Shown here: positions 2,180 to 31,107 of the stretch, piece by piece
Numbering within the stretch: position 1 is the first letter of the stretch
How the letters are laid out: every line of letters starts with the position of its first letter
DNA from: a virus
Length of the DNA: 64,000 bases
IMG/VR virus record: IMGVR_UViG_3300028800_000083
Reading direction: 5' to 3' (one strand)
Position numbers and translations under genes: made by a program
Notes under the pieces: generated by a model
Seen by the model: only the letters and a program-made list of their open reading frames with translations
Databases searched by the model: none
Told to the model about the DNA's origin: nothing

Positions 2180-2887
2180 GTCGAGACCACGACGAGGTCT
2201 CGCATCGATTGCGCCGTTCTAGCTTTCTAGCTTGTTATGCAGGTACTTCTGTCGAGACCACAGCGCGGTTTCGCATCGATCGCGCCGGGCGCCGGGCGCC
2301 GAGCGCACCGGTCCCCACTCCGAGGTCGAGACCATCGCGAGGTCTCGCATCGAGCACGCCCGCTTCCGTGTCTCCTCTACGTCGAGACGTCGAGACCATC
2401 GCGAGGTCTCGCATCTCTCGCAGCGCTTGCGCTGATCTGTGCGTCCGTGCGTCCATCCCTCTACGTCGAGACCACAGCGAGGTCGCGCATTTATCGTTAC
2501 GTGCTTGTGCTTGAGCGAGAAGCGAGAACGGTCCGGGGTCCGGGGTCCCGTGTCCTGTGTCCCGTTATCCGACGCCGACGCCGACGCCCGACGCCTTGTG
2601 GACTTTGTCGAGTGTCGAGACCCGAGACCCCAGTGAGGTCTCGCAGCGGTGATCTTCGTGCGCACGTCGTCTTCGAGACCACCGCGAGGTCTCGCATTGA
2701 TCATTGATCGCGCCAGGCACCAGGTAGCGGCTCTTCGCTCTCCGCTCTCCGTCTCCGTCGACTCAGCGATGATCCAGTCGAGACCACAGCGAGGTCTCGC
2801 ATCGAGATCGCGTTGGCGAATCCACCGATTCACCTCAAGAACGTAAGCGTTGTCGAGACCACAGCAAGGTCTCGCATCGTTCGGCAC
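2180..2887 (-). CRISPR. decayed CRISPR remnant with B-type repeats (~10 degenerate units)
   Basis: Units such as gtcgagaccacgacgaggtctcgcatcgattgcgcc and gtcgagaccacagcgaggtctcgcatcgagatcgcg recur at irregular 60-90-nt spacing. They are clearly derived from the array B consensus and are heavily mutated. The remnant abuts the first A-type repeat at 2909. Confidence 0.6.
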
Positions 2888-2908
2888 TACACACTACACG
2901 GTCAAGAA

Positions 2909-5821
2909 GTCTCGGTTGTTAACCAACCGAGCGGGTACGATCATAGGGTGTCCCTTAGAGCCTTAGACAGTGCAGTAGCTTCCTGTCTCAGCCGTCAACC
3001 GGCTGAGCAAGTGCGACCAAGGGCCTCGGGCCTCGGGCTTGTGCCCCTCGGGCCTCGGGCCTCGGGGGTCGGGGAGAATGCACGGACTCCCACTCGTCTC
3101 GGGCGTCGACCGACCGAGCAAGTCTTGCGGTTTGCGGTGTGCCGGTGTGCCGGTGTGCCGGTGTGCCGTGTGCCGTTGCTCAAGTCCCGGTCGTCAACCG
3201 GCCGAGTGACCGAGTCTCATGGCACTGCGCTGTAATCCCCTTGCTGTCTCGGTCGTCAACCGACCAAGCAGGTACTCTCGCTACATGCACATGCGCGCAC
3301 TGGCACTCACTGACGTCAACCGTCCGTCTGAGCGTCTGAGCTGCAACAAGCTCAAGGCTGGTCTCGGACGTCAACCGTCCGAGCAGGCGCGATCACTCCG
3401 AAGCTCCGTAGGCATAGCTGTCTCGGACGTCGGACGTCAACCGTTCGAGCAGGTGTCGATCATCCGCACGAGTGTCGAGTGTCGAGTGTCGAGCGCAAAC
3501 TCGGGATTCTCTGTCTCGGACGTCAACCGTCCGAGCAGGTGCGATCACCTACCAGGGTGAGAGATGGAAACAATCTCCGTCTCGGGCGTCAACCGTCCGA
3601 GCAGGTGCGATCACTCTCATAGATCACGTGCTCCAGCCTCCAGCCTCCAGCCTCCAGCCTCCAGCCTCCAGACGTCGGATCAGGCTCGTCTCGGACGTCA
3701 ACCGTCCGAGCAGGTGCGATCACCTGCCCCCCTGCCCCCCGCAGAGGCCGCAGAGGCGCAAGAACTCTCTCGCCAGTCTCGGACGTCAACCGTCCGAGCA
3801 GGTGCGATCACAGGCAGGTTCTCGCCTGGCTCCCGGCTCCCGGCTCCCGGCTCCACCTAACCAAGGTGTCTCGGACGTTAACCGTCCGAGCAGGTGCGAT
3901 CACCCGCTCGCTGAGCGTGAGCGTGAGCGGCCGATCGTAGCGGGTGTCTCGGACGTCAACCGTCCGAGCAGGTGCGATCACACGCGAGCATCGGGTGGCG
4001 CTGGCCCTCTCTAAACAATGCGTCTCGGACGTCAATCGTCCGAGCAGGTGCGATCATCTTCTGGACGCACGACGACAGATTCGGGATTCGGGTTGGCCCA
4101 GTCTCGGACGTTAACCGTCCGAGCCGCATCCCATGCGGCAGCGGCCCGATCCCTTGTCTCGGACGTCAACCGTCCGAGCAGGTGCGATCACCTCGCACGG
4201 GCGCGCGAGCCGTGAGGCCGTGAGCCGTCGATCGAGCTCAAGTCTCGGACGTCAACCGTCCGAGCAGGTGCGATCACTTGTGCGCGCGCATGCCGCGGGC
4301 GGCGGGCGGCGCGTGGTCTCGAACGTCAACCGTCCGAGCAGGTGCGATCACACGACGACGAATCAGCAGGCAAGGATAACTGCTGGTCTCGGACGTCAAC
4401 CGTCCGAGCAGGTGCGATCACAGGGGACGGACATCTTCGTGTTCGATCTTGGCACGCCTCGACCTCGAGCCACCTATAGTCTCGGACGTCAACCGTCCGA
4501 GCAGGTGCGATCACAAGCCACCCGCGACGCCTACGCGATGGAGCGTCGAGTCTCGGACGTCAACCGTCCGAGCGTCCGAGCAGGTGCGATCACACGCGCT
4601 GTACATCGGCCCCGGCGAGAAGTTCCGGTCTCGGACGTCAACCGTCCGAGCAGGTGCGATCACACGCGACCCGTGACCCGTTGCGCGAACGCGCGAACGG
4701 AACGGCCGGCTCCTCGTCTCGGACGTCAACCGTCCGAGCAGGTGCGATCACGCTCGGCGGCCAGCTGATCAGCACGCGCGATCGCTTGTCTCGGACGTCA
4801 ACCGTCCGAGCAGGTGCGATCACAATTGGCGATCAGTTGCGCGCGGCTGCGCGCTCGTCTCGGACGTCAACCATCCGAGCAGGTGCGATCACCCGCAGTT
4901 CGGGCAGGGAGCGTCCTCAAAGATCTGTCTGTCTCGGACGTCAACCGTCCGAGCAGATGCGATCACCTTCGACCGGTAGCGCGAGCGCTCGGGTACTTGT
5001 GGTCTCGGACGTCAACCGTCCGAGCAGGTGCGATCACGCGTCTCGACGGGGTAGCGCACCGAAATGGTCCGGGTCTCGGACGTCAACCGTCCGAGCAGGT
5101 GCGATCACGAGGTCAGCCGGTGTCCCAAATGCGGCGCCTTCGGGTCTCGGACGTCAACCGTCCGAGCAGGTGCGATCACTTGTGACGCATGTGCTCGCGG
5201 CTGGCAGCACTCAGTCTCGGACGTCAACCGTCCGAGCAGGTGCGATCACAGGATCACGCGCGTCGCCTCGTTAATCAGTCCGTCGTCTCGGACGTCAACC
5301 GTCCGAGCAGGTGCGATCATGCGAGAGCCGTGCCCGTCTGAATCACGATCTCCCAGCGTCTCGGACGTCAACCGTCCGAGCAGGTGCGATCACCGGCCGG
5401 GCGAAGCTTACCCGTTCAACTATCGAGTGTGGTCTCGGACGTCAACCGTCCGAGCAGGTGCGATCACAGGTGCCGCCTTTTGCTGCGTGTACAGGCGTTG
5501 GCTGTCTCGGACGTCAACCGTCCGAGCAGGTGCGATCACTCACCCATCGGACTGGCCAGTCCCTGGAGATCGGGTCTCGGACGTCAACCGTCCGAGCAGG
5601 TGCGATCACACGTCGTGACCGATCTAGCGATGACTAATCGGTTCGTCTCGGACGTCAACCGTCCGAGCAGGTGCGATCACCCTCGGCGCTGCGCGTAGCT
5701 GGTCTGCCCGTCTAGTCTCGGACGTCAACCGTCCGAGCAGGTGCGATCACTCGCAGCAGGCGATCCTCAAGCTGGCGCGGCCGATGTCTCGGACGTCAAC
5801 CGTCCGAGCAGGTGCGATCAC
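2909..5821 (-). CRISPR. CRISPR array A, ~40 units, 36-nt repeat GTCTCGGACGTCAACCGTCCGAGCAGGTGCGATCAC (plus-strand reading)
   Basis: Regular ~71-72-nt period with unique 34-36-nt spacers between 3361 and 5821. Repeats are degenerate and spacers irregular in 2909-3350, so that is the old end and the effector-proximal right end is the young end. The repeat contains the inverted repeat CTCGGACG/CGTCCGAG. On the minus strand the hairpin sits at the 3' end of the repeat next to the spacer, which is the type V-like arrangement. Strand is inferred. Confidence 0.9.
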
Positions 5822-5970
5822 CGGAGTTTCTTATTCAGTTGTCAAAGAAGGCACTTGCATCCTTCGATGCAGGCACCGGTAGCTTTACTCCACGCTCGTG
5901 CGTGTCGCGAGGGAGGACCCCTCTGAATGCTGCTGTACGGCCTGAGGTTTCGGGGGCGCATGAACCTCTT
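5822..5970 (-). promoter_or_regulatory. candidate leader or intergenic region between effector A 3' end and array A
   Basis: 149-bp stretch with lower GC (cggagtttcttattcagttgtcaaagaagg...) directly flanking the best-conserved terminal repeat. Contains the hairpin TGCATCcttcGATGCA at 5856-5871. Confidence 0.35.
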
Positions 5971-7908
5971 CTACGCGGCACGCCGCACCTGCGGCACCGG
6001 ACCGCTCGACAAGCCGTGCCTGTGGAGGAGGTTGCGCGCGGCGTTCGCGTCCTGGTCCCAGGTCCGAATGCACGACGAGCAGGTGTGCTCGATCGAGGCT
6101 GCCGCGTCGAACGCCTCGACCGAGCCGCACCACGCGCACGCCTTGGTCGAGTCCGCGGCCTGCTCGGCCTCGACGCGGGCGCCGCGTTTGGGGGCGGCCT
6201 TGAGGATCTCGGCGCGAAGCTCGCCGGGAGCTGCAAGGCGGCTCATGCGGCGCTGCTCGCGCCCGTCGGACGGGTCGCCGTCCTCCGGCGCGGGCTGCTC
6301 CCAGCCGTCGACCTCGGTGAGCTTCATCGAGGTGTCGTGGTTCGACCCGCTCTCGATCAGGATCGTCGCGTAGCGGGCGGTGAGCTCGGCGGCGATCACG
6401 CGCCACACCTCACGGCGGTGGGCGATCAAGCGATCGCGCTGGTGCTCCTCCCAGTTCTGGAGGTGTCGATCTTGGCGCGCCCACGCCTGGAGCACGGCGA
6501 GGATCGGACCGTCGCCGTCGATGCGGTTGGCCGTCGAGCCGAAGTCCGAAGGGTTGCACTTCTTGCCCTCGGCGCGAGCGACGCGCCAGGCGTCCCAGTC
6601 GATCCCAGTCCAAGCGTCGACGAGGGAGGCGAGCTTGCGGGGGGCGCGCCACTGCGCCAGGCTGCCGACGCGCTCGGCCATCCACGCGGGGGTCTCCCGG
6701 TCGAGCAGCCAGGCCGCGAGGCGGTCGCGCGCGGTCTCGAACTCCTTGTCGCGGATCGACGCCAGGTCGTGGACCTTGGCCATTCCCGTCAGCAGATCGT
6801 CGGGCACACGGATCTCGCGCTCGTGCCCGTGCTCGTCGACGAGGTAACCAACGCGCAGACCGACCTGCACGCCCTGGGCGTCGAACAGCCGCCGCCAGCC
6901 CAGGTCGATCGCGCAGGTCCCCTCGCCGATCGCCACCGGGCAGGCACGAAAGCGCTCGCTCTCGAGCGTGAGCTGGAACCTCCACTCGTAGTGACGGCCG
7001 ACGCGCTTGCGCACGACGTACGCCCACTTGATCACCGCGTCCTTCGGGATGGGTCGGTGGAGGGTGAGGGGGAAGCGCGCGAAGATCGGCTTCCGGTCAG
7101 GGTGGCTGCCGACGCGCAGGTCGACGTACGTCCGTGCCGCGTGACGGCGCAGGTTGCGCGGGAGGCACGCGGCCTCCTCCCACGTGGCGCACGCTCCGAC
7201 CTCGGCGCGCGGGTGCTTGTCGGCGAGACCAGGGGTCCCCAGCCGGAGCCGGGAGTCCTGCTGCGACAGCAGCTCGCTGACGGTCATGCCGTAGATTCCC
7301 GGGGCGCCGTCGCGCGCGATGAGCTGCGTGCCGATCGATCCGGTCCCGTCGTAGCGCTCGAAGTGGAGCGGGCGCTTCGCCGTCTTGACGGCCTGCTTGA
7401 CCGAGTTCTCGACGCGGTCGTAGGTGCCGGTGCGCAGTCCTCGCTCGATGAAGGCGCGGCGGGCCTCCTTGCGGCGCAGCGCCGTGAGCGCGCGCGCGGC
7501 CTCGTAGCCCGGCTGGAGCTGCGCCGCGCGAGACGCCTTGGCCTCGCGCAGCTCCGCGCCGCACAGGGCGCGGAGGTCCTTGGCGCGGGCGAGCACCTCG
7601 CGCTCCGCCGTCAGGTCCGGGGCAGCGACGCCGGACTTCGCGGCCCGCAGGTCGTCGTAGGCGTCGTCGACGGCACCCGCCGCGTCCTCGTAGTCGCGGA
7701 GGGCCGCACCGACGATCGGATCCGCGAGCTGGACGCCGCGGAGGTCGTCCCAGAGCTTGTGCTCGATCTCGACGAGCGTGTTGCGGTACTGGTGCGCGAG
7801 GCGGAACTGCTCTTCGACGCGGTTCACCTCGGTGATCGGAGGCAGGCAGCGGTACGAGTAGATCCGGGTCGGGACGTCGGAAGTCTTCTTCCTGGGCTGT
7901 CGCGGCAT
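5971..7908 (-). CDS. TnpB-like RuvC nuclease, putative type V CRISPR effector (Cas12-family, subtype unresolved), copy A
   Basis: ~646 aa from ATG at 7908; the longer in-frame ORF reaches 7980. TnpB-like N-terminus (PTRIYSYRCLPP). RuvC-I is AIDLGW, with the Asp codon GAC at 6904-6906. RuvC-II is ILIESG. Zinc finger CAWCG..(14)..CSSC is followed by RuvC-III DQDANAARNLL. A 40-unit array lies 150 bp downstream on the same strand. Confidence 0.75.
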   Translation of the reverse strand: MPRQPRKKTSDVPTRIYSYRCLPPITEVNRVEEQFRLAHQYRNTLVEIEHKLWDDLRGVQLADPIVGAALRDYEDAAGAVDDAYDDLRAAKSGVAAPDLTAEREVLARAKDLRALCGAELREAKASRAAQLQPGYEAARALTALRRKEARRAFIERGLRTGTYDRVENSVKQAVKTAKRPLHFERYDGTGSIGTQLIARDGAPGIYGMTVSELLSQQDSRLRLGTPGLADKHPRAEVGACATWEEAACLPRNLRRHAARTYVDLRVGSHPDRKPIFARFPLTLHRPIPKDAVIKWAYVVRKRVGRHYEWRFQLTLESERFRACPVAIGEGTCAIDLGWRRLFDAQGVQVGLRVGYLVDEHGHEREIRVPDDLLTGMAKVHDLASIRDKEFETARDRLAAWLLDRETPAWMAERVGSLAQWRAPRKLASLVDAWTGIDWDAWRVARAEGKKCNPSDFGSTANRIDGDGPILAVLQAWARQDRHLQNWEEHQRDRLIAHRREVWRVIAAELTARYATILIESGSNHDTSMKLTEVDGWEQPAPEDGDPSDGREQRRMSRLAAPGELRAEILKAAPKRGARVEAEQAADSTKACAWCGSVEAFDAAASIEHTCSSCIRTWDQDANAARNLLHRHGLSSGPVPQVRRAA

Positions 7909-7920
7909 CCGTGAATGGCT

Positions 7921-7948
7921 AACAGGATGATAGACGTTTTGCAAGGCT
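7921..7948. promoter_or_regulatory. conserved motif copy 1 (GCTAACAGGATGATAGACGTTTTGCAAG), 13-40 bp upstream of effector A ATG
   Basis: A 28-nt identity with the copy at 18211-18238 and 21 nt shared with the copy at 22314-22334. On the minus strand it reads TTGCAA-N17-TAGCCA and ends 13 nt before ATG 7908. Confidence 0.45.
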
Positions 7949-8011
7949 TCGTGACGGCGGTCCCCCTGGGACAGAGTCACTACCCCGGAGCGTACACGGC
8001 GTCCGATTCAC

Positions 8012-11000
8012 GTCGAGACCACTGCGAGGTCTCGCATCGATCGCGTGATCGCCTGTTGGTCGAGGTTTCACATCGATCGTGCCGCCTTGCCGTGCCAGGT
8101 GAGCAAGCGCTTGCACACGTCGAGACCACAGCGAGGTCTCGCATCGATCGCACCAACCTGAAATCGTCGGCGCCTTCATCCGGACGATTCGTCGGTCGGT
8201 TGAGACCACAGCGAGGTCTCGCGTCTCGCATCGATTGTGCCGAGAGTCGGCGCGGAGTTCTACGTTGACTTCTTCGGGTCGAGACCACCGCGAGGTCTCG
8301 CATCGATCAGGCCCGGCAATTTCATTGGCCGGAACTCCCAGTACCGGCTGGTCGAGACCACCGCAAGGTCTCGCATCGATCCCAGCCCAAATGTGAATCC
8401 GTCGAGACCACCGCGAGGTCTTGCATCGATCATCGATTGGGCCTCCCGCCCGCTCGCCAGCTCGCCGGGTTAGCAGTGGTCTCGACGAGCGGATCTACCG
8501 CGAGGTCTCGCATTGATCGTACCCCTTTTCCCTCGCCGTTTTCGCGGTCGTTGAGACCACTGCGCGCTGCGAGGTCTCGCAGCGATCGGGCCGAGCGGCC
8601 GAGCGGCCGAACGGAGCTGCCCCCAGCTCACGCGCTCGTAGGCTGATCGACCGGCTCGTCGAGACCGCCGCGAGGTCTCGCATCGATCGTGGCACTTCTT
8701 CGGGACCATACCCGTCACCTTGAGGAGAACTCGTCGAACCTCGTCGAGACCACCGTGGTCTCGCATCGATCGTGCCAATCGATTCGCGCAACGTCGATCG
8801 TGTCTGATTCGACGAGCTCGGGGCGAAGCGGTCGAGACCACAGCGAGGTCTCGCATCGATCATGCCTGTGGTGACGAAAAGGGCTGACAACGGTGACCTG
8901 TGGGTCGAGACCACAGCGAGGTCTCGCATCGATCGTGCGTCGGTGACTTGCTTCGATCGTGTCTTTGTCGGGGGCTTGCGCGAAACTTGGACCATGGGCA
9001 GTCGAGACCACAGCAAGGTCTCGCATCGATCACACCTGCGAACGGCGAGCTTCACAGTCAAGACGGCGCGCATTGATCTTGGCAGGCTTCAAGTTTCAAG
9101 TCCCTCGTGCGCCTTATCGTCCGTATCGTCGCGTTCTGGTCGAGACCATCGCGAGGTCTCGCATCGATTGCACCAGGGCTGCTCTGTGCCCTGGGGGCAT
9201 GCTCGGTGCTCGGCTGCTCGTCGAGACCCCTGCAAGGTCTCGCACTGACCGGAACTGATTCGCAACCACCTGTCGAGACCACCGCAAGGTCTCGCATCGA
9301 TTGTGCCGTTTGTACGTGAGGTTGATGAGGGGACGTCGAGAGTCGAGACCACCGCTCCTCATGGCAGCGTCGGGGTGGACCAACGACCAACGGTCGAGAC
9401 CACCGTGAGGTCTCGCATTGATCGTGCCCCCTTCTTGGGCCAGCAGGCGTCCTCCGTCAAGTGGTCGAGACCACAGCACAGCGAGGTCTCGCATCGATCG
9501 CGCCTCGATATCGCGCGGGCGCGCGGTGGTGGCTCAATGCTCAATGTTGTCGAGACCGTAGATGACCTGCGGCATTGCGGCACATTGAGCGTGGTCGAGA
9601 CCACAGCGAGGTCTCGCATCGATTGTGTCACTCGGCGATCTCGTTGTCCGTACCCCGTCGCCGCAGTCGAGACCACAGCGAGGTCTCGCATCGATTGTGC
9701 CCGACCTCGTGATTCGTGATTCGACGTGAGGATGGAGATCCCGGTGTCGAGATCTCGCGTCGATTGTGCCGTGGACGCCAAGTGGAGCGAGAGCCTTGGT
9801 AAAGCTGTCGAGACCACCGCGAGGTCTCGCATCGATCGTGCCAAGTAGGCTGCACATGAGTCGATGGCCGTTCGGCGTGTCGAGACCACCGCGAGGTCTC
9901 GCATCGATCGAGCTTGCGCACAGGTTTTCGAGACCACCGCGAGGTCTCGCATCGATCGTGCCGTGAAGACGTAGTCCCCGCGCGGCGGACTCGCATTGTC
10001 GAGACCACCGCGAGGTCTCGCATCGATTGTGCCCGTCAGCCTAAGCACCCTGTCGCGCTGGGAGTCGAGACCACCGCGAGGTCTCGCATCGATTGTGCCG
10101 CCTAGGCGCAGGCGTCTCACCTACGCAATCGCTAAGTAGAGACCACCGAGGTCTCGCATCGATCGTGCCGGGGGGCCGGGGATCGTCGACCGTCGGCCCA
10201 ACTGCGGACAGTCTAGGCGAGACCACAGCGAGGTCTCGCATCGATCGTGCCCAGCGCTTGCTCGCTTCCTCTTCGCGCGCCGATGACGACGTGTTGCGGC
10301 GGTAACAGGTAACAGGTGCGCACCGGGTGTTTGGGTCGAGACCACAGCGAGGTCTCACATCGATTGTGCCCCGGCTAAGCTGAAGAACCGTGACCCCAAA
10401 CTACGGCGAGTCGAGACCACAGCGAGGTCTCGCATTGATTGTGCCCCGTGACCAGGCTCGAGTACGTCAGCTTCAGCACCGTAGGGTCGAGACCACAGCA
10501 AGGTCTCGCATCGATTGTGCCAGCCTCAGGCTCCGCGTCCTGCTATTCCCGTTCGTCCAAGTCGAGACCAGCGCGGTCTCGCATCGATTGTGCCACGTGC
10601 CACGCGAGCCGCATCCCAGCCGTCAGGGTGTCGAGACCACCGCGAGGTCTCGCATCGATTGATTGTGACGCCGTGCAGCGCGCCAAGAATCGGGGCGATG
10701 CCAGTGTCGAGACCACCGAGGTCTCGCATCGATTGTGCCGTACCGCCGCGAGCGCGCCTTGACCGACGTAGAGCGTGTCGAGACCACCGCGAGGTCTCGC
10801 GTCTCGCATCGATTGTGCCGCGACACTCGCCGAAGTCGACCTCCGATCCCGACCCTGTCGAGACCACCGCGAGGTCTCGCATCGATTGTGCCTCCGCACC
10901 GTGCGCTGCGCGCTTCGGTGTCGTCTGGTCGAGACCACCGCGAGGTCTCGCATCGATTGTGCCTGCCGGCCTGCCGGCCTGCCGGCATCGCGCCGACGTC

Positions 11001-14000
11001 GTGGACGTGGGCACACCCGTCGTCGAGACCCCCGCGAGCACAGCACCGATCGTCAACTGGTCGAGACCACCGCGAGGTCTCGCATTGATTGTGACCGCTC
11101 GGGTCACCCACCATCTGCCGTGACACGATCTTGTCGAGACCACCGCGAGGTCTCGCATCGATTGTGCCGACGGACGCGGACGTCGTCGAGAAATGTCGGC
11201 CCTTGTCGAGACCACCGCGAGGTCTCGCATCGATCATCGATCGTGCCTTGCCACGACTACGCATGTGGCTCGGCGGGTCTGCGCGTGGGGCCACACCTCG
11301 GACTGGTCGAGACCACCGCGAGGTCTCGCATCGATCATGCCGTTACCTGCTAAGACGGTAAGCAGGGAGGTCGTCGAGACCACTGCGAGGTCTCGCAGCG
11401 ATCGTGCCCGTGAGGTCTCGCCCCTGCGACGTTGGGATCGGTCGTTGGTCGAGACTACCGCAAGGTCTCGCATCGATCGTGCCGCAACAGAATTCGTGAC
11501 GGCGCCGATACTCGGAGCGGTCGAGACCACCGCGAGGTCTCGCAGCGATCGTGCCCAGGCATCTATCAAGGCTACGCTTGCACGGGCGCTCGTCGAGACC
11601 ACCGCAAGGTCTCGCATCGATCGTGCCCTTTGCTGTCATGTGTCCTCTTCTTCCTTCTTCCTTGCAGGTTGTCGAGACCATCGCGAGGTCTCGCATCGAT
11701 CGTGCCGCGCGGTCGCGCCGTCGCGCGGGACGCGATGCTGTAGTCGAGACCACCGCGAGGTCTCGCATCGATCGTGCCGCTCGCGTAGCGAGGTGCCAAC
11801 GGCGTTCTTACGAGGTCGAGACCACCGCGAGGTCTCGCATCGATCGTGCCGCCCAGGAGCGTCAGAGTGTCGACCATTTCGCCGTGTCGAGACCACCGCG
11901 AGGTCTCGCATCGATCGTGCCGTTCAACCCGCACTCGGGCAAGCACAAGACGCTCGGTCGAGACCACCGCCGTGACGGATGAGCCTGTTGCTGTTGGGCA
12001 GGCCTACGTCGTATTGGTCGAGACCACCGCGAGGTCTCGCATCGATCGTGCCCTGGCTGTCCTTAAGACGAGGCCCCTATGGACCGAGAGTCGAGACCAC
12101 CGCGAGGTCTCGACCACATGGCTCCGGCTCTGGTCGAGACCACCGCGAGGTCTCGCATCGATCGTGCCGTCTCCACGTTCACGCCGCCCTCCCACGCGAG
12201 CCAGTCGAGACCACCGCGCGGTCTCGCATCGATCGTGCCGTGCCACGTGCCACGTGCCACAGCAGCAGCGAGCCCAGACTAGACAGTTCGTCGAGACCAC
12301 CGGGAGGTCTCGCATCGATCGTGCCAGTCGGTCGCTTGACCATGGCTAACCTCAAAAATGTGTCGAGACCACCGCGAGGTCTCGCATCGGTCGTGCCCTC
12401 GATACGGACCCGAGAAACGGAAACTGGTTTTTCAGTCGAGACCACCGCGAGGTCTCTCATCGATCGTGCCGGCCAAGTCTTCCTCGGTCGTCGAGCGCCC
12501 GCCGGCCTTGTCGAGACCGCCGCGAGGTCTCGCATCGATCGTCGATCGTGCCCTCTTGTAGACCCAGCCGTGTAGCCGATAGAGCTGCTTGTCGAGACCA
12601 CCGCGAGGTCTCGCATCGATCGTGCCGTCTCGTCGCTCGCCATGCTCGCCGGCACACCGAACCCGTCGAGACCACCGCGAGGTCTCGCATCGATCGTGCT
12701 CCCAGGCGAGCGAGTCGAGGTAGTCGCGGACCGGGTGGGTCGAGACCACCGCGAGGTCTCGCATCGATCGTGCCGCACGCGGGCGCGCGCTCGGTGTCGT
12801 TGACCGTTGACCGAGGAGGTCGAGACCACCGCGAGGTCTCGCATCGATCGTGCCGCCGTGCAATTGCGGACGGCCGATCTACTTCCGGTGGTCGAGACCA
12901 CCGCGAGGTCTCGCAATCGATCGTGCCGGTCGAGAGTGCGTGACCGAAAACACGGAACCGGAGGCTGGTCGAGACCACCACGAGGTCTCGCATCGATCGT
13001 GCCGTACAGGTTCGCCGTGGTGCCCTTGGGCGCACCGTAGTCGAGACTACCACGTCATAGCGGCCGTCGAGACCACCGCGAGGTCTCGCATTGATCGTGC
13101 CGCGACCTCGTCGAGGTGCCGCTCGTCGTTCATTCTTGTCGAGACCACCGCGAGGTCTCGCATCGATCGTGCCTTGCCTAGCCGCCGAGGCGTTCGGCGA
13201 CAAGACAGCGGGTCGAGACCACCGCGAGGTCTCGCATCGATCGTGCCGCGGCCGGGCAGGAGGGCAGGAAGTTGAACGTCGAGTCAACTTTGTCGAGACC
13301 ACCGCGAGGTCTCGCATCGATCGTGCCGAACGCCGAACACTGCTGAGCGGCAGGCGATACTCCTAGGGCAGTCGAGACCACCGCGAGGTCTCGCATCGTC
13401 GCATCGCTCGTGCCTGCAACGCGCGGTTCGCTCAGCGGGGGTTGGAGGTGGTCGAGACCACTGCGAGGTCTCGCATCGATCGTGCCCGCGACTCGTTCGT
13501 CGTTCGCCGCGTCGGCCGTAGTGCGCCGGGTCGAGACCACTGCGAGGTCTCGCATCGATCGTGCCACGCGCGCCAAGTCGGTCCAACTAAGAGCCCCAAT
13601 CGTTGTCGAGACCACCGCGAGGTCTCGCATCGATCGTGCCCAGCCGACCGAATTCGCCACTGCATTTACGACGCTGTGTCGAGACCACCGAGAGGTCTCG
13701 CATCGATCGTGCCGAACGCGGGCGCGTCGGGCTCGAGTTCGTTCCATTGGTCGAGACCACCGCGAGGTCTCGCATCGATCGTGCCGCGCGCATCGTGCGG
13801 CAAGCGTGCGGCAAGCGTGCGGCATGAGCTTGTCGAGACCGCCGCGAGGTCTCGCATCGATCGTGCCTTATCGTCGGACTTGCCGATCCCGAGCTGCCCT
13901 TTTGTCGAGATCACTAGGTCTCACATCGATCGTGCCGGTTATGGCGCCCTCGTTGTCGCAGTGCCCGTTCTCGTCGAGACCACCGCGAGGTCTCGCATCG

Positions 14001-15906
14001 ATCGTGCCGATCGTCGACGTGGAACGTGGAGGCGCGTTGGCGCAACCGGAAGTCGAGACCACCGCGAGGTCTCGCATCGATTGTGCCCGTCGCGCGCTCG
14101 CCCGATATCGATGAGCCCAACGTGTCGAGACCACCGCGAGGTCTCGCATCGATCGTGCCGGGAAGTAGGCTGCACATGAGTCGATGGCCGTTCTGCGTGT
14201 CGAGACCACCGCGAGGTCTCGCATCGATCGTGCCGTCTAACGTGGCTGCTCACCGGAGCCGTGGTTCGCTGTCGAGACCACAGCGAGGTCTCGCATCGAT
14301 CGTGCCTCGGGAATTCCAAGACCTCCGTCAGCGGTTCCTCTCGTCGAGACCACAGCGAGGTCTCGCATCGATCGTGCCGGTGTCAAACGTGCGATGGAAC
14401 AGGCGGAGGTTTAGGTCGAGACCACCGCGAGGTCTCGCATCGATCGTGCCTGAACACGTTCTTGCCGTTGGCGCCTTCGCCATAATGGTCGAGACCACCG
14501 CGAGGTCTCGCATCGATCGTGCCGTTGTGCAGACACTTTGCCGTAACGACGCCGGTGTCGTCGAGACCACCGCGAGGTCTCGCATCGATCGTGCCGAACG
14601 ACTCGAAGGTCGCGACATCGACGCATCTGTCGTCGAGACCACCGCGAGGTCTCGCATCGATCGTGCCCGCGTGCGAAGCAGAGATGCCCTCGAGCAGTCG
14701 CTCGTCGAGACCACCGCGAGGTCTCGCATCGATCGTGCCGCTGCGCGACCGCGACGAAGCTCGTCGTCCTCATAGATGCTCACGTCACGTCGAGACCACC
14801 GCGAGGTCTCGCATCGATCGTGCCACAGGAGTAGACACGGATCCACGGAGGAACCAATGGGTCGAGACCACAGCGAGGTCTCGCATCGACGACGTGATCG
14901 CCCGTTGGTCGAGACCACCGCGAGGTCTCGCATCGATCGTGCCAGGTCGGGCTGGACCTTGGCAGTCGAGACCGCTGCGAGGTCTCGCATCGATCGTGCC
15001 GAAAGCGGCCGGGTCGGGCGCGGGCGCGATCTGCGCGTCGAGACCCCCGTGAGGTCTCGCGTCTCGCATCGATCGTGCTGTTCAGGATCTCAGCCGCAGC
15101 GAGCGAGGTGTCTATGTCGAGATGTCGAGACCACCGCGAGGTCTCGCATCGATCGTGCCCAGCAACGAACCCGGGCTAGAGAGTTCGAACCCATGTCGAG
15201 AGTCGAGACCACCGCGAGGTCTCGCATCGATCGTGCCGATCGCCGCCGCGATTGAAGCAGCGCTCGTCTCTGGCGTCGAGACCACCGCGAGGTCTCGCAT
15301 CGATCGTGCCTGATCTGAGCGGCCTTGTCGATCGGCTCAAGGTCGAGACCACCGCGAGGTCTCGCATCGATCGTGCCGGCTCGGACGCATGACCAAGAGC
15401 GTTACGTTCGATGTGTCGAGACCACCGCGAGGTGCCATGACCTCACCATAGCGCGCCCGCGATCGTGCCGACGAACCCGAATTCCTCCGCCGAGGACAAT
15501 CCGTAGGTGTCGAGACCACCGCGAGGTCTCGCATCGATCGTGCCGGGGCTTGGGCTCGATCCGCGCTACACGATCTCGTCGTCGAGACCACCGCGAGGTC
15601 TCGCATCGATTGTGCCCGCCTGACGGTACGCCGCCGGGGCGGAGGGCTGCGTGTCGAGACCACCGCGAGGTCTCGCATCGATTGTGCCCTCGACCGTCTC
15701 GTGCCAGCCCTTCGGGATTCGCACGTCGAGACCACCGCGAGGTCTCGCATCGATTGTGCCCACTCTCGTGGTCTCGTGGCAATACCCACTCGACGTGCGT
15801 CGAGACCACCGCGAGGTCTCGCATCGATTGTGCCGCGCCGCTTGTCCGGTGGCGACCAGGACTTCAGGATGTCGAGACCACCGCGAGGTCTCGCATCGAT
15901 TGTGCC
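8012..15906 (-). CRISPR. CRISPR array B, ~108 units, 36-nt repeat GTCGAGACCACCGCGAGGTCTCGCATCGATCGTGCC (plus-strand reading)
   Basis: 72-74-nt period with unique 36-39-nt spacers. Repeats are degenerate in 8012-9100 (old end) and near-perfect toward 15906, which is the end next to effector B. Palindrome GAGACC/GGTCTC. Sub-variants ...GATCGTGCC and ...GATTGTGCC occur in blocks. A few truncated repeats are present, for example at 12090. Strand is inferred as for array A. Confidence 0.9.
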
Positions 15907-15927
15907 TTCGATTGTCAGAGAACGAAC

Positions 15928-16199
15928 CATGCTTATCCGGTTGTCACCCCTCGCGGGCGCGACGGATCTCCTTGATCTTTCGCTCGGCGCGCTTCGCAGA
16001 GGCTCGCCATTCAGCGAGAGCTTCCGTTGGGGTGAATTCTTGAATCGTTCCGCCGACGTTGATCACGGACGGTCGCTTGCCCAGAGAGGCGGAAAGAAGC
16101 TCGCCCATTTCGGAGCGGATGATTTTAAGTTCACGTTCGAGTCGCGATGCCATTTGATGTCTCCCTGATCACGTTTGGGGTGTTAACCGGATAAGCATG
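15928..16199. mobile_element. MITE-like insertion (272 bp) with 23-bp imperfect terminal inverted repeats and 8-bp target-site duplication GAACGAAC (15920-15927 and 16200-16207)
   Basis: Left end CATGCTTATCCGGTTGTCACCCC versus right end GGGGTGTTAACCGGATAAGCATG; 21 of 23 positions match as reverse complement. Identical direct repeats GAACGAAC flank both ends. The interior has lower GC. It sits between the last array B repeat (ends 15906) and the effector B stop (16212). Confidence 0.65.
15944..16153 (-). CDS. small ORF inside the MITE (69 aa, coiled-coil-like, lower GC)
   Basis: MASRLERELKIIRSEMGELLSASLGKRPSVINVGG... The only ORF of 60 aa or longer within the TIR-bounded element. Codon usage is atypical for the surrounding DNA. 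It may not be expressed. Confidence 0.3.
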   Translation of the reverse strand: MASRLERELKIIRSEMGELLSASLGKRPSVINVGGTIQEFTPTEALAEWRASAKRAERKIKEIRRAREG

Positions 16200-16211
16200 G
16201 AACGAACGATC

Positions 16212-18167
16212 CTACGGCGTTGCGGGGCTCGGCGCGAGCGGCTGCTGGTCCTTCCGCCGGTTCCGCCGCGCCGGGGCCTTCTTCTTCGTCGAAGGTGCCG
16301 GAACCTTGGGGTCGAGCGGCCACCCGCTCTCGCCGCGCGCGACGGCGCTCGCGGCGGCGAGCAGGTTTCGGCTCATCGTGATGTCCTGGTCCTCGGCGTG
16401 GCCGCAGTTCTCGCAGCGGATCACCCGCTGCACCCGGTCTTCCCGCGAGACGTCGCGGTGGTGACCGCAGGCCGCGCAGTCGAGCGTCCCACCGGCAGCG
16501 TCGACCTCCAGGTCGACGCTGCCGTACTTCTTCGCGAAGTAGCCGACGCGGGCGCGGGCGCGCCCGGGCCCCAGGATGTTCACGCGGCGCGCCGTCTTCT
16601 TGCGCAGCTTCTGCTCGTCCTCGTCGTGCTGGTCGTCCTTCTCGACGAGGCCGGTCACGTCGAAGTCGTCGCGGGCGACGACCCCGTAGCGCTTGGCCAG
16701 CTGGACCGCGACCGCGGTGACGCGGCCCTCGACCTGGCGCTGCATGCGCTCGAGGCTCGGCACCTCGCGGTGGAGCAGGTGGACGTCCTGCTTGCTCCAC
16801 GCCTCCAGCGCCGCGAAGGCCGGCTGGTCGCCGTGGATGCGCTGGTCTCGCCACTGCCGGTGCAGGCGGACGTACTTGCTGGGGGCCCGCCAGTTGTGCA
16901 TGTGGCGGCTCTCTTCGCGGAGCCACGACGTCGCCGGCAGCGACCGGGCGTAGGCGAGGATCATGTCGCGGAGCACGTCCTGGTTCTGGTCGCGGATCGA
17001 ATGGATCGAGTCGGCCCAGGGTTTCACACCGAGCACGTCCTCGGGGATCACGAGTTGCCCCCAGAGCGGGCTCGCGGGGTCGTTGGGGTCGAGTGGCGCG
17101 GTGGCGCTCCACGTGAGCAGGCGGATGCCCGCCTTCTTGCCCTCCTCGTCGAAGAGCTGACGCCAGCCGATGTGGACGGCGACCGCGTCGTGCGGGTGCG
17201 GGTGCGGGGTGGTCACGGCCACGGAGCCCTCGACCTCAAGCGTGAGGTACCAGCGGTAGCGGAGCCCGGTGCGCTCGCGCCGGACCACGGCCCACTTGAC
17301 GACGTCGTGCCCGAGCTGGAGGCGGTTCTTCGTGCGCGGGGACTGGTGCAGGAGCAGGTGCATCTGGGCCCAAATCGGGCGGATGGTGCCCGGCACAGTC
17401 CCGACGCGGATCGCGAGCGCGTGGAAGCGCTTGCCCTTCGTGGCGGCCTCTCCCGCGCGCGGCCCGATCTTGATGACGTCTCCCGGGTTCCCGGCGACGT
17501 CGATCGCGCGCCCCTCGGCGTCGACCGCGGCGGGTCGGAAGTGGTCGACCGGGGCACCCAGCGAGTACGCGACCGATCCGATGCGCAGCCAAGACCCTTC
17601 GCCGCCGATGAGATCGTCGGCGTAGACGGACTTCTTGGCGGGAAGTGTCTTGCCGGTCCGCGCGTCGATGCGCGCGTTCTGCCGCTGGAACTGGACGGCG
17701 ATGCGGCCCACGTCCGGGGGGAAGTCCGTCCCCACGAACGTGGTCCGGCCGTTTTCGTCGATGAGCCCTGCCTTGTCGATCGTGCGCCGCGCGAAGTCGG
17801 CCGCGTCGTCCGCCTTGCCGAGCGTCCCCCACATGGCTCCCGCCTCGATCGTCGCGTCGCGCACGGCCTTGAGCGCGCGCTTCTTCCCCGCGAACACGCG
17901 CTCGCGGAGGGCCTTGAACTCGTCAGAGGCGTGCCACGCATCGCGGGCAGCTTTCCCAGCCTCCGACTTCCACCACGCGCCACGCGCTTCGACGGGTACG
18001 TCCCTGGCCGGGTAGTCGATGAGCGCGCGCCGGAGGAAGCGCTCGCGGTTCTCGATGAGCGCGATCTGTCGGCGGTAGCGCGCGCCGAGGCGCACCTGCT
18101 CGCGCAAGCAATGGTCGTCGGCGGCCGTCGCCGGGAGACAGAGGAACTTGTACACGCGCATCGTCAT
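16212..18167 (-). CDS. TnpB-like RuvC-fold protein, putative type V CRISPR effector paralog B with divergent catalytic residues
   Basis: 651 aa; about 30-35% identical to copy A over its full length (RVYKFLCLPA N-terminus, WRAPSK, AWSKQD, KRYG blocks). RuvC-I reads AVHIGW, with His codon CAC at 17172-17174 where copy A has Asp. RuvC-II reads VVARDD. Zinc finger CAACG..CENCG is followed by EDQDITMSRNLL. A 108-unit array lies downstream on the same strand. Confidence 0.75.
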   Translation of the reverse strand: MTMRVYKFLCLPATAADDHCLREQVRLGARYRRQIALIENRERFLRRALIDYPARDVPVEARGAWWKSEAGKAARDAWHASDEFKALRERVFAGKKRALKAVRDATIEAGAMWGTLGKADDAADFARRTIDKAGLIDENGRTTFVGTDFPPDVGRIAVQFQRQNARIDARTGKTLPAKKSVYADDLIGGEGSWLRIGSVAYSLGAPVDHFRPAAVDAEGRAIDVAGNPGDVIKIGPRAGEAATKGKRFHALAIRVGTVPGTIRPIWAQMHLLLHQSPRTKNRLQLGHDVVKWAVVRRERTGLRYRWYLTLEVEGSVAVTTPHPHPHDAVAVHIGWRQLFDEEGKKAGIRLLTWSATAPLDPNDPASPLWGQLVIPEDVLGVKPWADSIHSIRDQNQDVLRDMILAYARSLPATSWLREESRHMHNWRAPSKYVRLHRQWRDQRIHGDQPAFAALEAWSKQDVHLLHREVPSLERMQRQVEGRVTAVAVQLAKRYGVVARDDFDVTGLVEKDDQHDEDEQKLRKKTARRVNILGPGRARARVGYFAKKYGSVDLEVDAAGGTLDCAACGHHRDVSREDRVQRVIRCENCGHAEDQDITMSRNLLAAASAVARGESGWPLDPKVPAPSTKKKAPARRNRRKDQQPLAPSPATP

Positions 18168-18195
18168 TGTTGGGCGCCCCGCTGTCGCACGTGCT

Positions 18196-18238
18196 GTTGT
18201 TGCATTGACGAACAGCTAACAGGATGATAGACGTTTTG
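18196..18238. promoter_or_regulatory. conserved motif copy 2 (TTGCATTGACGAACAGCTAACAGGATGATAGACGTTTTGCAAG) between divergent effector B and RHH-like gene
   Basis: Nearly identical to the copy at 22302-22339. Quasi-palindromic ends (TTGCA..ACG / CGT..TGCAA). Possible -35/-10 readings in both directions: TTGACG-N17-TAGACG on plus and TTGCAA-N17-TAGCTG on minus. Confidence 0.5.
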
Positions 18239-18421
18239 CAAGACGCAATGTTCGAGCCGAAGCAACAAGCCGCGGAGAAACTCAGCCACTACATCGGTGC
18301 GCGCGTCACCGACACCGAAGAGTCGTGGCTCCGCGCCGAGATGAAGCGCAGAAAGATCACGATGAGTGACTTGATGCGCCTCGCGCTCGGCAAGCTCTTC
18401 GTTTCCAAGAAGACGGGGTGA
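18224..18421 (+). CDS. small ribbon-helix-helix-like protein (possible transcriptional regulator)
   Basis: 65 aa. The C-terminal half, MSDLMRLALGKLF, resembles the CopG/RHH fold. Transcribed divergently from effector B; its start lies within the conserved motif. Confidence 0.4.
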   Translation: MIDVLQDAMFEPKQQAAEKLSHYIGARVTDTEESWLRAEMKRRKITMSDLMRLALGKLFVSKKTG

Positions 18422-19624: not shown

Positions 19625-19782
19625 CCGACGAGGCGCAGCTCGAAGGTGAGCGGCTGAAGGAGCAGATTCTCCGACTGTTCCCAGTTTCCGGGAGGCTGCG
19701 CAGGATCTGTGACTGTGTCGGGAGGTGCGCTAGCGAGGGCGCCGCGCTGGTGTCCCGAGAGGCGGGGGCAGCGCAGCGGTGA
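19621..19782 (+). CDS. hypothetical small protein
   Basis: ATGA overlap; 53 aa; bridges to the helicase gene. Confidence 0.3.
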   Translation: MTDEAQLEGERLKEQILRLFPVSGRLRRICDCVGRCASEGAALVSREAGAAQR

Positions 19783-21182
19783 CGGTGACGATGCGGCTCG
19801 AGGAGCGTCCGTACGAGGCGAAGGCCGTCCGAGACCTCCGCGTCGAGCTGCCGGCGTACAAGCGGGTGCTCGCCGTCGCGCCCACCGGCGCGGGCAAGAC
19901 GGTGATCGCGACGCTCTTGCTCGCGGTCGAGAAGCGCTGGCGTCGGGTGCTGTGGCTCGCGCACCGCGCCGAGCTGGTCGGACAGGCGCGGGAGAGCCTC
20001 TTTTCCCTCGGCGTCCCGTGCGGCGTGCGGTGTGCGTCGTACGAGGCGCTGCATCCCGACCACGTCGATCGCGAGGCCCGTGTGCAGGTCGGCAGCGTCC
20101 AGACCGTGTCGCGGCAGGAGGTCTTCGACGTCGACTTGATCGTGGTTGACGAGGCCCATCGCGCGATGGCCGACTCGTACCAGGCGATCGCGCGACTCCG
20201 GCCCCGCGCGGAGGTCCTCGGTCTCACCGCGACGCCGCTTCGGATGGACGGGCGCGAGCTGGGAGACTTCTTCCAGTCGCTGCTCGTCCTCGCCAAACCG
20301 AGTGAGCTCTACGCGGAGGGTTACCTCGCGGAGCCGGTCACCTACGCGGCCGGCCCGGAGACGCGGGCGTTGCTTGCGCAGCGTCTTCGATCGGTCCGCG
20401 TCAAGGGTGGTGACTTTCAGTTGGACGCGCTCGGTCGTGCCGTGAACACGACAGACCTCGTGGGCGACGTGGTCAGCGAGACTCGTCGCCTGGCGCCTGG
20501 TGTGCCCAAGGTCGTGTTCGCGGCGACGGTCGCGCACTCGAGAGAGATTGCGGAGCGCTTCTCGGGAGTCGGGGTCCGCGCCGCGCACATCGACGCGGAC
20601 ACGCCTACGGACGATCGGTCGCGCGCCTTGGCGATGCTCGCGTCCGGGGAGCTGGAGGTCGTCTGCAACGTCGAGATCTTGACCGAGGGTTGGGACCTCC
20701 CCGTCCTCGGTGCCGTCGTGGTGGCCAGGCCCACGTGGAGCCTCGGGCGCTTCATGCAGATGGTCGGTCGTGTGCAGCGGCCCGGCAGCGGCCCTCCGAA
20801 GTTGGTCCTCGACCATGGCGGAAACGCCGACCGGCTCCAACACTTCCCTGGCGAGGACGTTGACTGGAAGCTCGCACGAGGCTCTCGAAAGTTGAAGAGG
20901 AGAGCACCCCCGAGCGTGCGTCTCTGCGTCGCGTGCTGCGCCGTCCTACGGGAGACTTGCGAGGTGTGCCTCCACTGCGGCACGGCGCAGCCCCGGAGCA
21001 CGAAGCGCCTCGTCGAGGAGCACGAGGCCGAGCTGGTCGAACTCGATCGTGCACGCATCGAAGCGCTGCGGAGGGGCGTGCGTCAGCGTGCAGAGGAGGT
21101 GGCGCGGAGAGTCGGAGCACCTGCGAGCTGGGTGGACACCGTGGTTGAAGCTGTGGTCCTGCGCGGTGGGAGAGGGCGCTGA
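19779..21182 (+). CDS. SF2 DEAH-box helicase (ResIII/Rad25-like) with C-terminal zinc ribbon
   Basis: Walker A APTGAGKT, DEAH box (VVDEAHRA), motif III TATP, motif VI QMVGRVQR, C-terminal CVACC..CEVCLHCG. Confidence 0.85.
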   Translation: MTVTMRLEERPYEAKAVRDLRVELPAYKRVLAVAPTGAGKTVIATLLLAVEKRWRRVLWLAHRAELVGQARESLFSLGVPCGVRCASYEALHPDHVDREARVQVGSVQTVSRQEVFDVDLIVVDEAHRAMADSYQAIARLRPRAEVLGLTATPLRMDGRELGDFFQSLLVLAKPSELYAEGYLAEPVTYAAGPETRALLAQRLRSVRVKGGDFQLDALGRAVNTTDLVGDVVSETRRLAPGVPKVVFAATVAHSREIAERFSGVGVRAAHIDADTPTDDRSRALAMLASGELEVVCNVEILTEGWDLPVLGAVVVARPTWSLGRFMQMVGRVQRPGSGPPKLVLDHGGNADRLQHFPGEDVDWKLARGSRKLKRRAPPSVRLCVACCAVLRETCEVCLHCGTAQPRSTKRLVEEHEAELVELDRARIEALRRGVRQRAEEVARRVGAPASWVDTVVEAVVLRGGRGR

Positions 21183-22276: not shown

Positions 22277-22301
22277 GGACGTTCCTGTTGACGTCTCCAC
22301 G

Positions 22302-22339
22302 GCTGCATTGACGAACAGCTAACAGGATGATAGACGTTT
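22302..22339. promoter_or_regulatory. conserved motif copy 3 (TGCATTGACGAACAGCTAACAGGATGATAGACGTTTGG), upstream of gene 22386
   Basis: A 36-nt identity with copy 2. Lies in the 110-bp intergenic region about 47 bp upstream of the AAGGACGA-ATG start at 22386. Confidence 0.5.
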
Positions 22340-22385
22340 GGCCGGCGCACTCGGTTTTACGAGCGCTCTACAAAGGACGACACGC

Positions 22386-30739: not shown

Positions 30740-31107
30740 TCAGTAGTTCGGTTTCGTGGTCACGTCGGCGCCTTCGCTCCGCGCGGCTTCTTCTGGCCGC
30801 GGGCCACCTCGTGGGCCGCGAGGCGGGCGATCGTTTCGCTCGTGTTGTCGCCGATCCGGCACACGTAACACGTTGGAGGCGGTGGTCGCGGCGACCCGTC
30901 CCCACCGTCGACGCCCCAACCCGCCGTCGCCGGTCCGCCGCAGCTCGTGCAGACGGAGTCGTGCGATCGGAGCAGCCACCCGTTGCCGTGGCCGACGACG
31001 GGGACGACGTCGCGACTGGAGTCATCGAAGCCGAAGCACCACGGGCAGCGGTTGGACGGACAGCGCGTGAAGTAGCCGTGGGGGCACTTCTCCGCTGAGA
31101 GGCTCAC
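30740..31107 (-). pseudogene. frameshifted or truncated paralog of the Cys-rich gene 29916..30425
   Basis: A ~50-bp DNA repeat (30712-30764 versus 30203-30255) encodes NYWMEG in the intact copy and NY-stop-MEG here. The N-terminal Cys-rich part (CPSNRCPWCFG) is in a different frame from the C-terminal part. Confidence 0.35.

Follow-up and report, generated by a model that had tools for sequence, protein, structure and literature searches.

Two effector genes on the minus strand

The 64,000-nt stretch of DNA analysed here, from the IMG/VR virus record IMGVR_UViG_3300028800_000083 (the whole stretch is called the window), carries on its minus strand two genes for type V effectors of CRISPR systems, cas12m-A and cas12m-B, each directly followed on the same strand by its own very large CRISPR array (Table 1). 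Both genes are complete open reading frames (ORFs), of 645 amino acids (aa) counted from Met for protein A, for which a GTG extension to 7980 is possible but unlikely, and of 651 aa for protein B. Their third-codon guanine-plus-cytosine (GC) fractions of 0.91 (cas12m-A) and 0.93 (cas12m-B) are typical of real genes in this sequence, which has 68% GC and stays between 62 and 71% throughout the window, and we therefore take both to be real genes. A preliminary description of this DNA had placed two genes of ~650 aa here, had read them as TnpB-derived type V single effectors, and had counted ~40 and ~108 units in the arrays behind them. The genes are as described, the effector assignment is upheld by the profile, PDB-sequence and (for B) fold comparisons that follow, and the arrays come to ~39 and ~106 units.

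Pfam and NCBIfam recognised only the C-terminal TnpB/Cas12f-type zinc-ribbon region in A and B. Among PADLOC profiles, A matched Cas12u1 (type V-U1) with an E-value of 8.8e-89, residues 14-630 aligning to profile positions 3-529, and more weakly Cas12u4 (8.5e-10) and TnpB (1e-7). Searched against PDB sequences, it matched 23vw_A, deposited as 'DNA-binding protein Cas12m', over residues 17-628 (E 8.3e-65), with further matches to Cas12m2 (8e-26) and UnCas12m4a.

For B, the Cas12u1 match was confined to the C-terminal 320 residues (E 1.5e-38), next to a Cas12u4 match at 6.7e-14; as a single sequence it matched 23vw_A (1.3e-25), and Cas12m was the sole PDB family found. A profile built from eight B-lineage sequences matched 23vw_A at 2.9e-33, GoCas12m (8PM4) at 6.8e-21 and MmCas12m2 at 8e-19, and its alignment placed the AVHIGW, VARDD and EDQD segments of B on H322, D497 and D590 of GoCas12m. 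The AlphaFold2 model of B (predicted local distance difference test score, pLDDT, 75.4; predicted template modelling score, pTM, 0.47) has long helices at residues 15-133 and 383-493. Foldseek ranked Cas12m2 and GoCas12m structures as the top four matches to this model, with E-values from 3.6e-24 (8HHL) to 6.6e-22 (8PM4), followed by Cas12f, TnpB, Fanzor and the rest from 1e-10 downward, so that the Cas12m structures lead Cas12f by 12 orders of magnitude. Since template modelling scores are low (0.35-0.41, with an uncertain domain arrangement and 18-20% identity to solved Cas12m in the fold alignment), the fold argument for B rests on this ranking and not on superposition.

An alignment of 38 sequences located the RuvC triad at D335, E519 and D620 in A and as H, D and D in B, with four invariant zinc-ligand cysteines; some members of the A lineage have N instead of D at RuvC-I. 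The RuvC motifs of the preliminary description could accordingly be placed in both proteins, with the correction that the RuvC-I residue of B is His instead of Asp and its RuvC-II residue Asp instead of Glu. Both triads are among the known Cas12m configurations (DED/NED/DND, HDD and HEK/HQK; PMC10442227). Based on the profile and PDB-sequence matches and the triads, and for B also on the predicted fold, we assign A and B to Cas12m, type V-M (formerly V-U1), a subtype already described; the effector annotation is thus retained and the subtype novelty that had been considered is gone. The two proteins are only distantly alike (27% identity across the C-terminal 390 residues). The lineage of A comprises ~100 clusters, all from metagenomes and without a characterised member. 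The close lineage of B consists of 8 clusters at 90% identity, and an exhaustive search returned ~40 clusters at E <= 1e-30, with full-length relatives 31-41% identical; B thus stands on a rare branch but is no orphan.

Table 1. Positions of the effector genes, arrays and other features in the window
Feature	Position	Strand	Description
cas12m-A	5971..7908	-	Cas12m (type V-M) effector; D335-E519-D620 RuvC triad; zinc ribbon C591, C594, C610, C613
cas12m-B	16212..18167	-	Cas12m (type V-M) effector; H-D-D RuvC triad; CxxC..CxxC zinc ribbon
CRISPR array 1	2909..5821	-	~39 units of the type-1 repeat, CRISPR RNA (crRNA) sense GTGATCGCACCTGCTCGGACGGTTGACGTCCGAGAC; leader-proximal end 5821
CRISPR array 2	8012..15906	-	~106 units of the type-2 repeat, crRNA sense GGCACGATCGATGCGAGACCTCGCGGTGGTCTCGAC; leader-proximal end 15906
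Remnant type-2 repeats	2180..2885	-	8 solid degenerate copies (4-6 edits) and a weak one, distal to array 1
28-nt motif CTTGCAAAACGTCTATCATCCTGTTAGC, copy 1	7918..7945	-	-37..-10 from the cas12m-A start codon
28-nt motif, copy 2	18215..18242	-	-75..-48 from the cas12m-B start; divergent intergenic region; identical to copy 1
Insertion flanked by terminal inverted repeats	15920..16207	-	272-bp element 15928-16199 between the cas12m-B stop and the first type-2 repeat
Small divergent gene	18224..18421	+	65 aa, probable start at internal Met 18248; ribbon-helix-helix-like
Genes for a sigma-70 factor, DnaJ, a helicase, SLOG and SPFH	24006-25718, 31104-32294, 19779-21182, 38398-38973, 53324-54325		Listed jointly

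Array structure, polarity and repeat hairpin

At three or fewer mismatches, the 36-nt type-1 repeat GTCTCGGACGTCAACCGTCCGAGCAGGTGCGATCAC has 30 matches and the 36-nt type-2 repeat GTCGAGACCACCGCGAGGTCTCGCATCGATCGTGCC has 76, all on the plus strand, against an expectation of 0 from 100 dinucleotide-preserving shuffles. A scan tolerant of insertions and deletions resolved array 1 into 39 units (36 of them within 8 edits of the repeat) and array 2 into 106 (100 within 8 edits). The arrays begin 149 nt beyond the stop codon of cas12m-A and 305 nt beyond that of cas12m-B, the latter distance shrinking to ~25 nt when an inserted element is discounted; array and effector gene are joined in the same order and on the same strand in 25+ related loci. 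Repeats and spacing are perfect beside each effector, over the 15-25 nearest units of each array, and become mutated, truncated and irregular with distance. Because the repeats decay away from the effector, we consider the effector-proximal end to be the young one.

The two repeats align without gaps and differ at 16 of 36 positions, and five repeats from related loci align gap-free with both. On the effector strand, each ends in a hairpin whose last letters, GAC, adjoin the spacer. Across the 7 repeat types, 94.6% of the cells in helix columns 14-21 / 27-34 are paired, with compensatory changes at 4 of the 8 pairs, whereas sliding the partner by 1-3 columns left 20-45% paired. The gap-free alignment and this covariation bear out two further points of the preliminary description, namely that the repeats have co-diverged while keeping one architecture, and that the hairpin sits at the 3' end of the minus-strand repeat next to the spacer, as in type V systems. 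As far as can be read from the sequences, this is the 5'-handle design of type V guides. No anti-repeat resembling a trans-activating crRNA (tracrRNA) was found outside the arrays in the window, in agreement with published Cas12m systems, which need none (PMC11013384).

The oldest units of array 1 (2909, 2985 and 3246; within 2909-3336), for example GTCTCGGTTGTTAACCAACCGAGC..GTACGATCA, resemble the current repeat (12366-15870) of a relative, locus L010, whose Cas12m protein is 62% identical. These old units differ from the young ones by paired changes in the stem, and we regard them as a within-array record of repeat evolution. Separately, a 2843-bp contig (L008, Logan SRR8544146) joins window position 5786 to 3396 and thereby skips most of array 1; this junction is probably a short-read repeat collapse, although it may instead reflect a real deletion variant.

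Nesting of one module within the other

Read along the minus strand, the order is cas12m-B, array 2, cas12m-A, array 1 and then more type-2 repeats. Upstream of cas12m-A, the type-2 units stop ~100 nt short of its start codon, and the first type-2 remnant lies 23 nt beyond the oldest type-1 unit. Since type-2 repeats flank it on both sides, the A module, composed of the 28-nt motif, the gene and array 1, is embedded in the type-2 array. Positions 2180-2885, previously taken for the start of array 1, turned out to be degenerate type-2 repeats, several of which share the CCACAGCG variant, elsewhere frequent in the older, low-coordinate part of array 2. The nesting likely arose via recombination at the shared 28-nt motif, which precedes both effector genes, and within the arrays.

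Spacers and adaptation genes

PADLOC models of Cas1, Cas2 and Cas4 had no match among the 90 ORFs of the window, and the lack of cas1, cas2 and cas4 reported earlier thus stands for the window; the stretch of the replicon examined was the window plus ~11 kb of flanks. From the arrays, 137 spacers of at least 18 nt were extracted, their modal length being 34-35 nt for array 1 against 36 nt for array 2, and their GC content 63-64%. Only one near-duplicate pair was found among them (9843-9878 / 14160-14198, array 2). As the spacers are nearly all unique, we conclude that the arrays grew through acquisition and not through duplication. The duplicated spacer itself is 36 nt long, with one mismatch between copies that lie ~58 units apart, and could have been acquired twice, from variant targets, or go back to an old duplication inside the array.

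Scored with the element's own codon usage, the spacers reached 1.42, compared with -0.52 for shuffles (standard deviation 1.95, n = 85) and 3.62 for the element's own genes. This coding-like score suggests that many spacers probably come from protein-coding DNA of high-GC genomes. Strand calls gave 49 sense and 36 antisense spacers at 79% calling accuracy, a difference too weak to read as a bias. Comparison of the spacers with the rest of the window, its flanks and 40 related loci gave chance-level matches only.

Relatives and the carrying replicon

A protein identical to A (P0001) occurs on many metagenome contigs from several assemblies, most of which break inside the arrays. One sample holds the same element on contigs of 154.7 kb and 151.8 kb, a carrying contig in the range of 0.2-1 Mb exists, and the longest contig of the identical-protein cluster measures 461.4 kb. 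We conclude that the replicon carrying the locus is a huge mobile element, 300 kb or more in length and either a huge phage or a megaplasmid.

Pairs of Cas12m loci recur on related huge contigs, where they lie 15-31 kb apart and have arrays of ~25-55 units. A contig of 332,853 bp (L010/L042) carries an A-type locus (~48 units) and a B-type locus (~50 units, repeat GTAGCAATCGATGCGAGACCTCGCACTGGTCTCGAC) ~31 kb apart and, unlike the window, in divergent orientation, and a contig of 410,486 bp (L009/L044) carries two A-family loci. Repeat k-mer counts are 21-41 in this close lineage, equivalent to ~25-55 units by span, versus 3-19 in more distant Cas12m loci from IMG/VR and from genomes, and the arrays of the window are the largest seen. 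The best homologue of A among 185,579 species genomes (GTDB) is 33% identical and close relatives are absent. An alignment-based scan of IMG/VR found 20 Cas12m-like loci, one of them 50% identical to A, while single-protein scans of IMG/VR gave no match, and plasmids of Meiothermus, Mycobacterium and others carry homologues 25-29% identical.

Comparison with known type V-M systems

Published V-M loci comprise arrays without further cas genes and frequently reside on plasmids (PMC10691335); the absence of cas1, cas2, cas4 and a tracrRNA is the rule among them (PMC10691335, PMC11013384), and their arrays are short compared with those of V-A and V-B in published surveys (PMC10691335). Cas12m proteins bearing D-E-D, H-D-D and N-D-D triads process their own pre-crRNA without a tracrRNA, protect against plasmids and phages, and all bind double-stranded DNA, with none cleaving it (PMC11013384); the HDD triad brings about silencing by binding (PMC10442227).

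The closest parallels to B are MmCas12m2 of Mycolicibacterium mucogenicum (8HHL/8HHM/8HIO) and GoCas12m of Gordonia otitidis (8PM4), which are likewise single effectors of ~600 aa with an H-D-D triad and a zinc ribbon before RuvC-III. Their loci share with the window an array directly downstream of the gene, a 36-nt repeat with a 3' hairpin, and the absence of cas1/2/4; they work without a tracrRNA, for which the window likewise shows no anti-repeat outside the arrays. B differs in being only ~20% identical and 45-55 residues longer, and those loci lie on actinobacterial chromosomes or plasmids with short arrays, whereas B is followed by ~106 units, plus the 8-9 remnants, on a huge uncultivated element. 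The D-E-D triad of A is shared with MsCas12m, TfCas12m, UnCas12m (from an IMG/VR scaffold) and 23vw_A; the tested members of this group bind DNA without cutting it (PMC11013384), and their proteins are 536-583 aa long, compared with 645 aa for A, whose array has ~39 units.

Among viruses, Virus Rctr197k (KX853510, Caudoviricetes, 197 kb) encodes a Cas12m homologue with 29% identity to A across 95% of its length, annotated only as 'similar to transposase'. Behind this effector lies an annotated CRISPR of 1.5 kb whose 36-nt repeat shares the design (...GCTCAGA...TCTGAGAC); unlike the window, Rctr197k has a single locus of ~20 units, neither nested nor paired. The MvCas12m of the myxophage MV-1 (bioRxiv 10.64898/2026.09.14.751636) and the CasPhi/Cas12j of huge phages (PMC7162821) similarly combine a compact type V effector with an array, in these cases on a phage and without cas1/cas2/cas4 or a tracrRNA, and competition between elements has been proposed as their role. 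MV-1 has 8 spacers, versus 39 and 106 units and two different effectors here, and the median for arrays borne by phages is six repeats (PMC7162821); Cas12j belongs to another subtype and cuts DNA.

Proposed mode of action and alternatives

We interpret the locus, with a probability of roughly 80%, as a compound of two type V-M systems, each formed by a single Cas12m and its own array and acting by crRNA-guided DNA binding. Each gene and its array would be transcribed from the minus strand, and the pre-crRNA would be cut within the repeats to yield guides composed of a 5' repeat handle (the hairpin ending in GAC) and a ~36-nt spacer, with no need for a tracrRNA. Because the two repeats differ at so many positions, we would expect each Cas12m to bind only guides with its own repeat, making the systems orthogonal. 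The complexes would then recognise a protospacer adjacent motif (PAM) and a matching double-stranded target, and tight binding would block transcription or replication without cutting. For B, with its H-D-D triad, binding without cleavage is firmly expected by analogy, and for A, with its D-E-D triad, the same is likely. More generally, it is from the Cas12m family that we infer crRNA processing, PAM-dependent binding without cleavage and a role in interference. Since the locus has no acquisition genes, its ~145 unique spacers would have been supplied in trans over a long history by a Cas1-Cas2 encoded elsewhere, in the host or on the same replicon, with new spacers entering at the effector-proximal end. 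The role would most plausibly be to compete with other mobile elements and/or to silence genes of the host.

Several observations weigh against this interpretation. No protospacer was found for either array in 50,697 phage and 72,556 plasmid records, nor for four spacers (the newest or duplicated ones) in IMG/VR, and the element's own arrays were the sole matches of the duplicated spacer in the metagenomes of the Joint Genome Institute (JGI), so the spacer comparison envisaged in the preliminary description yielded neither a target nor a PAM. A scan for sigma-70 promoter and terminator consensus sequences stayed at background level, with no convincing promoter and without calling the 28-nt motif. 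Apart from the L008 junction, arrays assembled from different samples are all 99.9-100% identical and thus give no sign of ongoing acquisition. Truncated or oddly spaced units are numerous, some of them even near the leader of array 2, and together with the insertion behind cas12m-B they indicate that some decay is under way. With the window and ~11 kb of flanks covered, cas1/cas2 may lie elsewhere on the replicon, and the canonical D-E-D triad of A means that this protein may have nuclease activity.

This last point leads to a reading in which the two effectors divide the labour, A cutting targets and B only binding and silencing them. A and most of its lineage keep the RuvC carboxylates D335, E519 and D620, the N found at RuvC-I in some members suggests that inactivation is derived and not universal, and the DED clades may hydrolyse DNA according to a speculation by Omura et al. 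(PMC10442227). However, the closest solved relative of A was deposited as a DNA-binding protein, and restoring DED in MmCas12m2 did not bring cleavage back (PMC10442227), and we consider such a division unlikely, though deserving of some weight. We also doubt, somewhat more strongly, that the locus is a relic whose fossil arrays no longer acquire spacers and are perhaps unused, the effectors persisting by inertia or for another role. The absence of adaptation genes from the window, the identity of the arrays across all samples, the many truncated repeats and off-size spacers, the insertion that parts cas12m-B from its array, the splitting of the type-2 array by the A module and the lack of spacer matches in anything searched would all fit a relic. 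Yet both ORFs are intact with a strong gene-like codon bias, conservation extends to the columns of the catalytic site and the zinc ligands, the 15-25 units closest to each effector show no flaw, and the gene-array pairing, with 25-55 units, is maintained in related elements; missing protospacers, moreover, are the norm for spacers from soil metagenomes.

That the locus belongs to a chromosomal defence island whose arrays draw on a conventional CRISPR-Cas system, with Cas1-Cas2, at another site in the genome, is less probable still. Such an origin would be compatible with carrying contigs of up to 0.2-1 Mb, with genes of kinds also known from cells (DnaJ, a sigma-70 family factor, SPFH, a helicase), and with the failure to see a capsid, portal or terminase. 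It is difficult to reconcile with the absence of ribosomal, tRNA and core metabolic genes from ~150 kb of this and related elements, or with neighbouring genes that form long same-strand strings of small ORFs, of which more than 85% of those called lack a Pfam match. GTDB species genomes likewise lack homologues more than 33% identical, and relatives turn up on contigs of IMG/VR and in a deposited caudovirus. Genes for an integrase, a ParB-like protein and RNA ligases, as well as a Mom-like gene, occur in the element and its relatives. By far the least probable reading is that of a new type V subtype distinct from V-M, prompted by the low identity (18-20%) of B to solved Cas12m in the fold alignment, the restriction of its profile matches mainly to the C-terminal half and the rarity of its close lineage (8 clusters). 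Against it stand the end-to-end match of A to the V-U1 profile, the four Cas12m structures that head the fold matches of B, the fit of the triad, zinc ribbon, long N-terminal helical hairpin, repeat design and locus layout of B to V-M, and the continuum of full-length B relatives at 31-41% identity.

Implications of a paired locus with very large arrays

The type of system and its occurrence on plasmids and viral contigs were already known, from UnCas12m of IMG/VR (PMC11013384), from Rctr197k and from the myxophage preprint with its eight spacers. What is unusual is the size of the arrays for a V-M system without cas1, the nested layout with two effectors, the recurrent pairing of A-type and B-type loci on huge elements, and the two uncharacterised Cas12m lineages. 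Arrays of ~39 and ~106 units with near-unique spacers sharpen the question of how type V systems lacking cas1 acquire spacers. A D-E-D and an H-D-D Cas12m with different repeats in one transcriptional direction form a natural test case for guide orthogonality, and the paired triads another for functional differences between D-E-D and H-D-D, while A and B themselves are potential new compact DNA-binding platforms. A broader and rather speculative proposition is that a lineage of huge elements (300-460 kb) routinely carries two orthogonal Cas12m systems with arrays of 25 to more than 100 unique spacers and no adaptation genes of its own. Were this true, it would imply efficient long-term capture through a host Cas1-Cas2 that accepts V-M repeats, or Cas1-independent spacer addition, and the ~145 non-cutting guides would amount to a programmable repression programme directed at competitors or host genes.

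Neighbouring genes and small elements

The gene families recognised in the window are a sigma-70 family factor, a full DnaJ, a superfamily 2 (SF2) helicase, a circularly permuted YpsA/SLOG protein and an SPFH/Band-7 protein (Table 1). The Mom-like DNA-modification gene lies at 13774-14595 of locus L039, and a radical SAM protein is also among the neighbours. The preliminary description had placed the locus among phage-like genes, which holds in so far as some window and neighbour genes match PHROG families and lie in strings of genes without recognisable relatives, and fails in so far as no capsid, portal, terminase or structural PHROG was found among the 90 window ORFs or 81 ORFs of flanks and relatives, apart from 'tail fiber' matches. 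In the related element of 410 kb, one gene (L009, 20306-21070) specifies a collagen-like protein of Gly-X-Y repeats; the 'tail fiber' matches most likely come from this protein and are not good evidence of a phage tail. A tRNA scan found none, and 25 kb of the window had no megablast match among phages and plasmids. Homologues of the DnaJ in phage records are mostly cellular-like and uninformative on the type of replicon.

Beyond its two identical copies, the 28-nt motif has a third at 22318-22345, upstream of the minus-strand ORF 21623-22300, in which the 3' 22 nt recur and three mismatches fall over the 28 nt. The first 18 nt of the motif also stand upstream of the cas12m gene of L010, where the next 12 nt are inverted. 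The motif may be an element-specific promoter or operator, perhaps read by the element's own sigma factor.

The insertion that separates cas12m-B from its array has the look of a miniature transposable element: its terminal inverted repeats of 15 nt CATGCTTATCCGGTT are accompanied by flanking 8-bp direct repeats GTTCGTTC that resemble a target-site duplication. It contains a 69-aa ORF (15944-16153, minus strand) with a GGGAGA ribosome-binding site; comparison of this ORF with Pfam gave nothing significant, and no second copy of the element was found in the window or in loci L001-L047. The gap of ~25 nt that would remain without the element matches that of the relative L042.

The protein of the small divergent gene upstream of cas12m-B has a NikA-like Pfam match below threshold (E 0.0036) and, judged by its sequence pattern, would be a ribbon-helix-helix protein and candidate local regulator. 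A more general role as a partner of Cas12m was considered and rejected, as the gene is present only here and in L010 and is absent at other B-type loci. In L010, its 70% identical counterpart lies immediately upstream of the A-type cas12m gene, and the 169 nt upstream of cas12m-B, which include this gene, are 81% identical to the corresponding region there.

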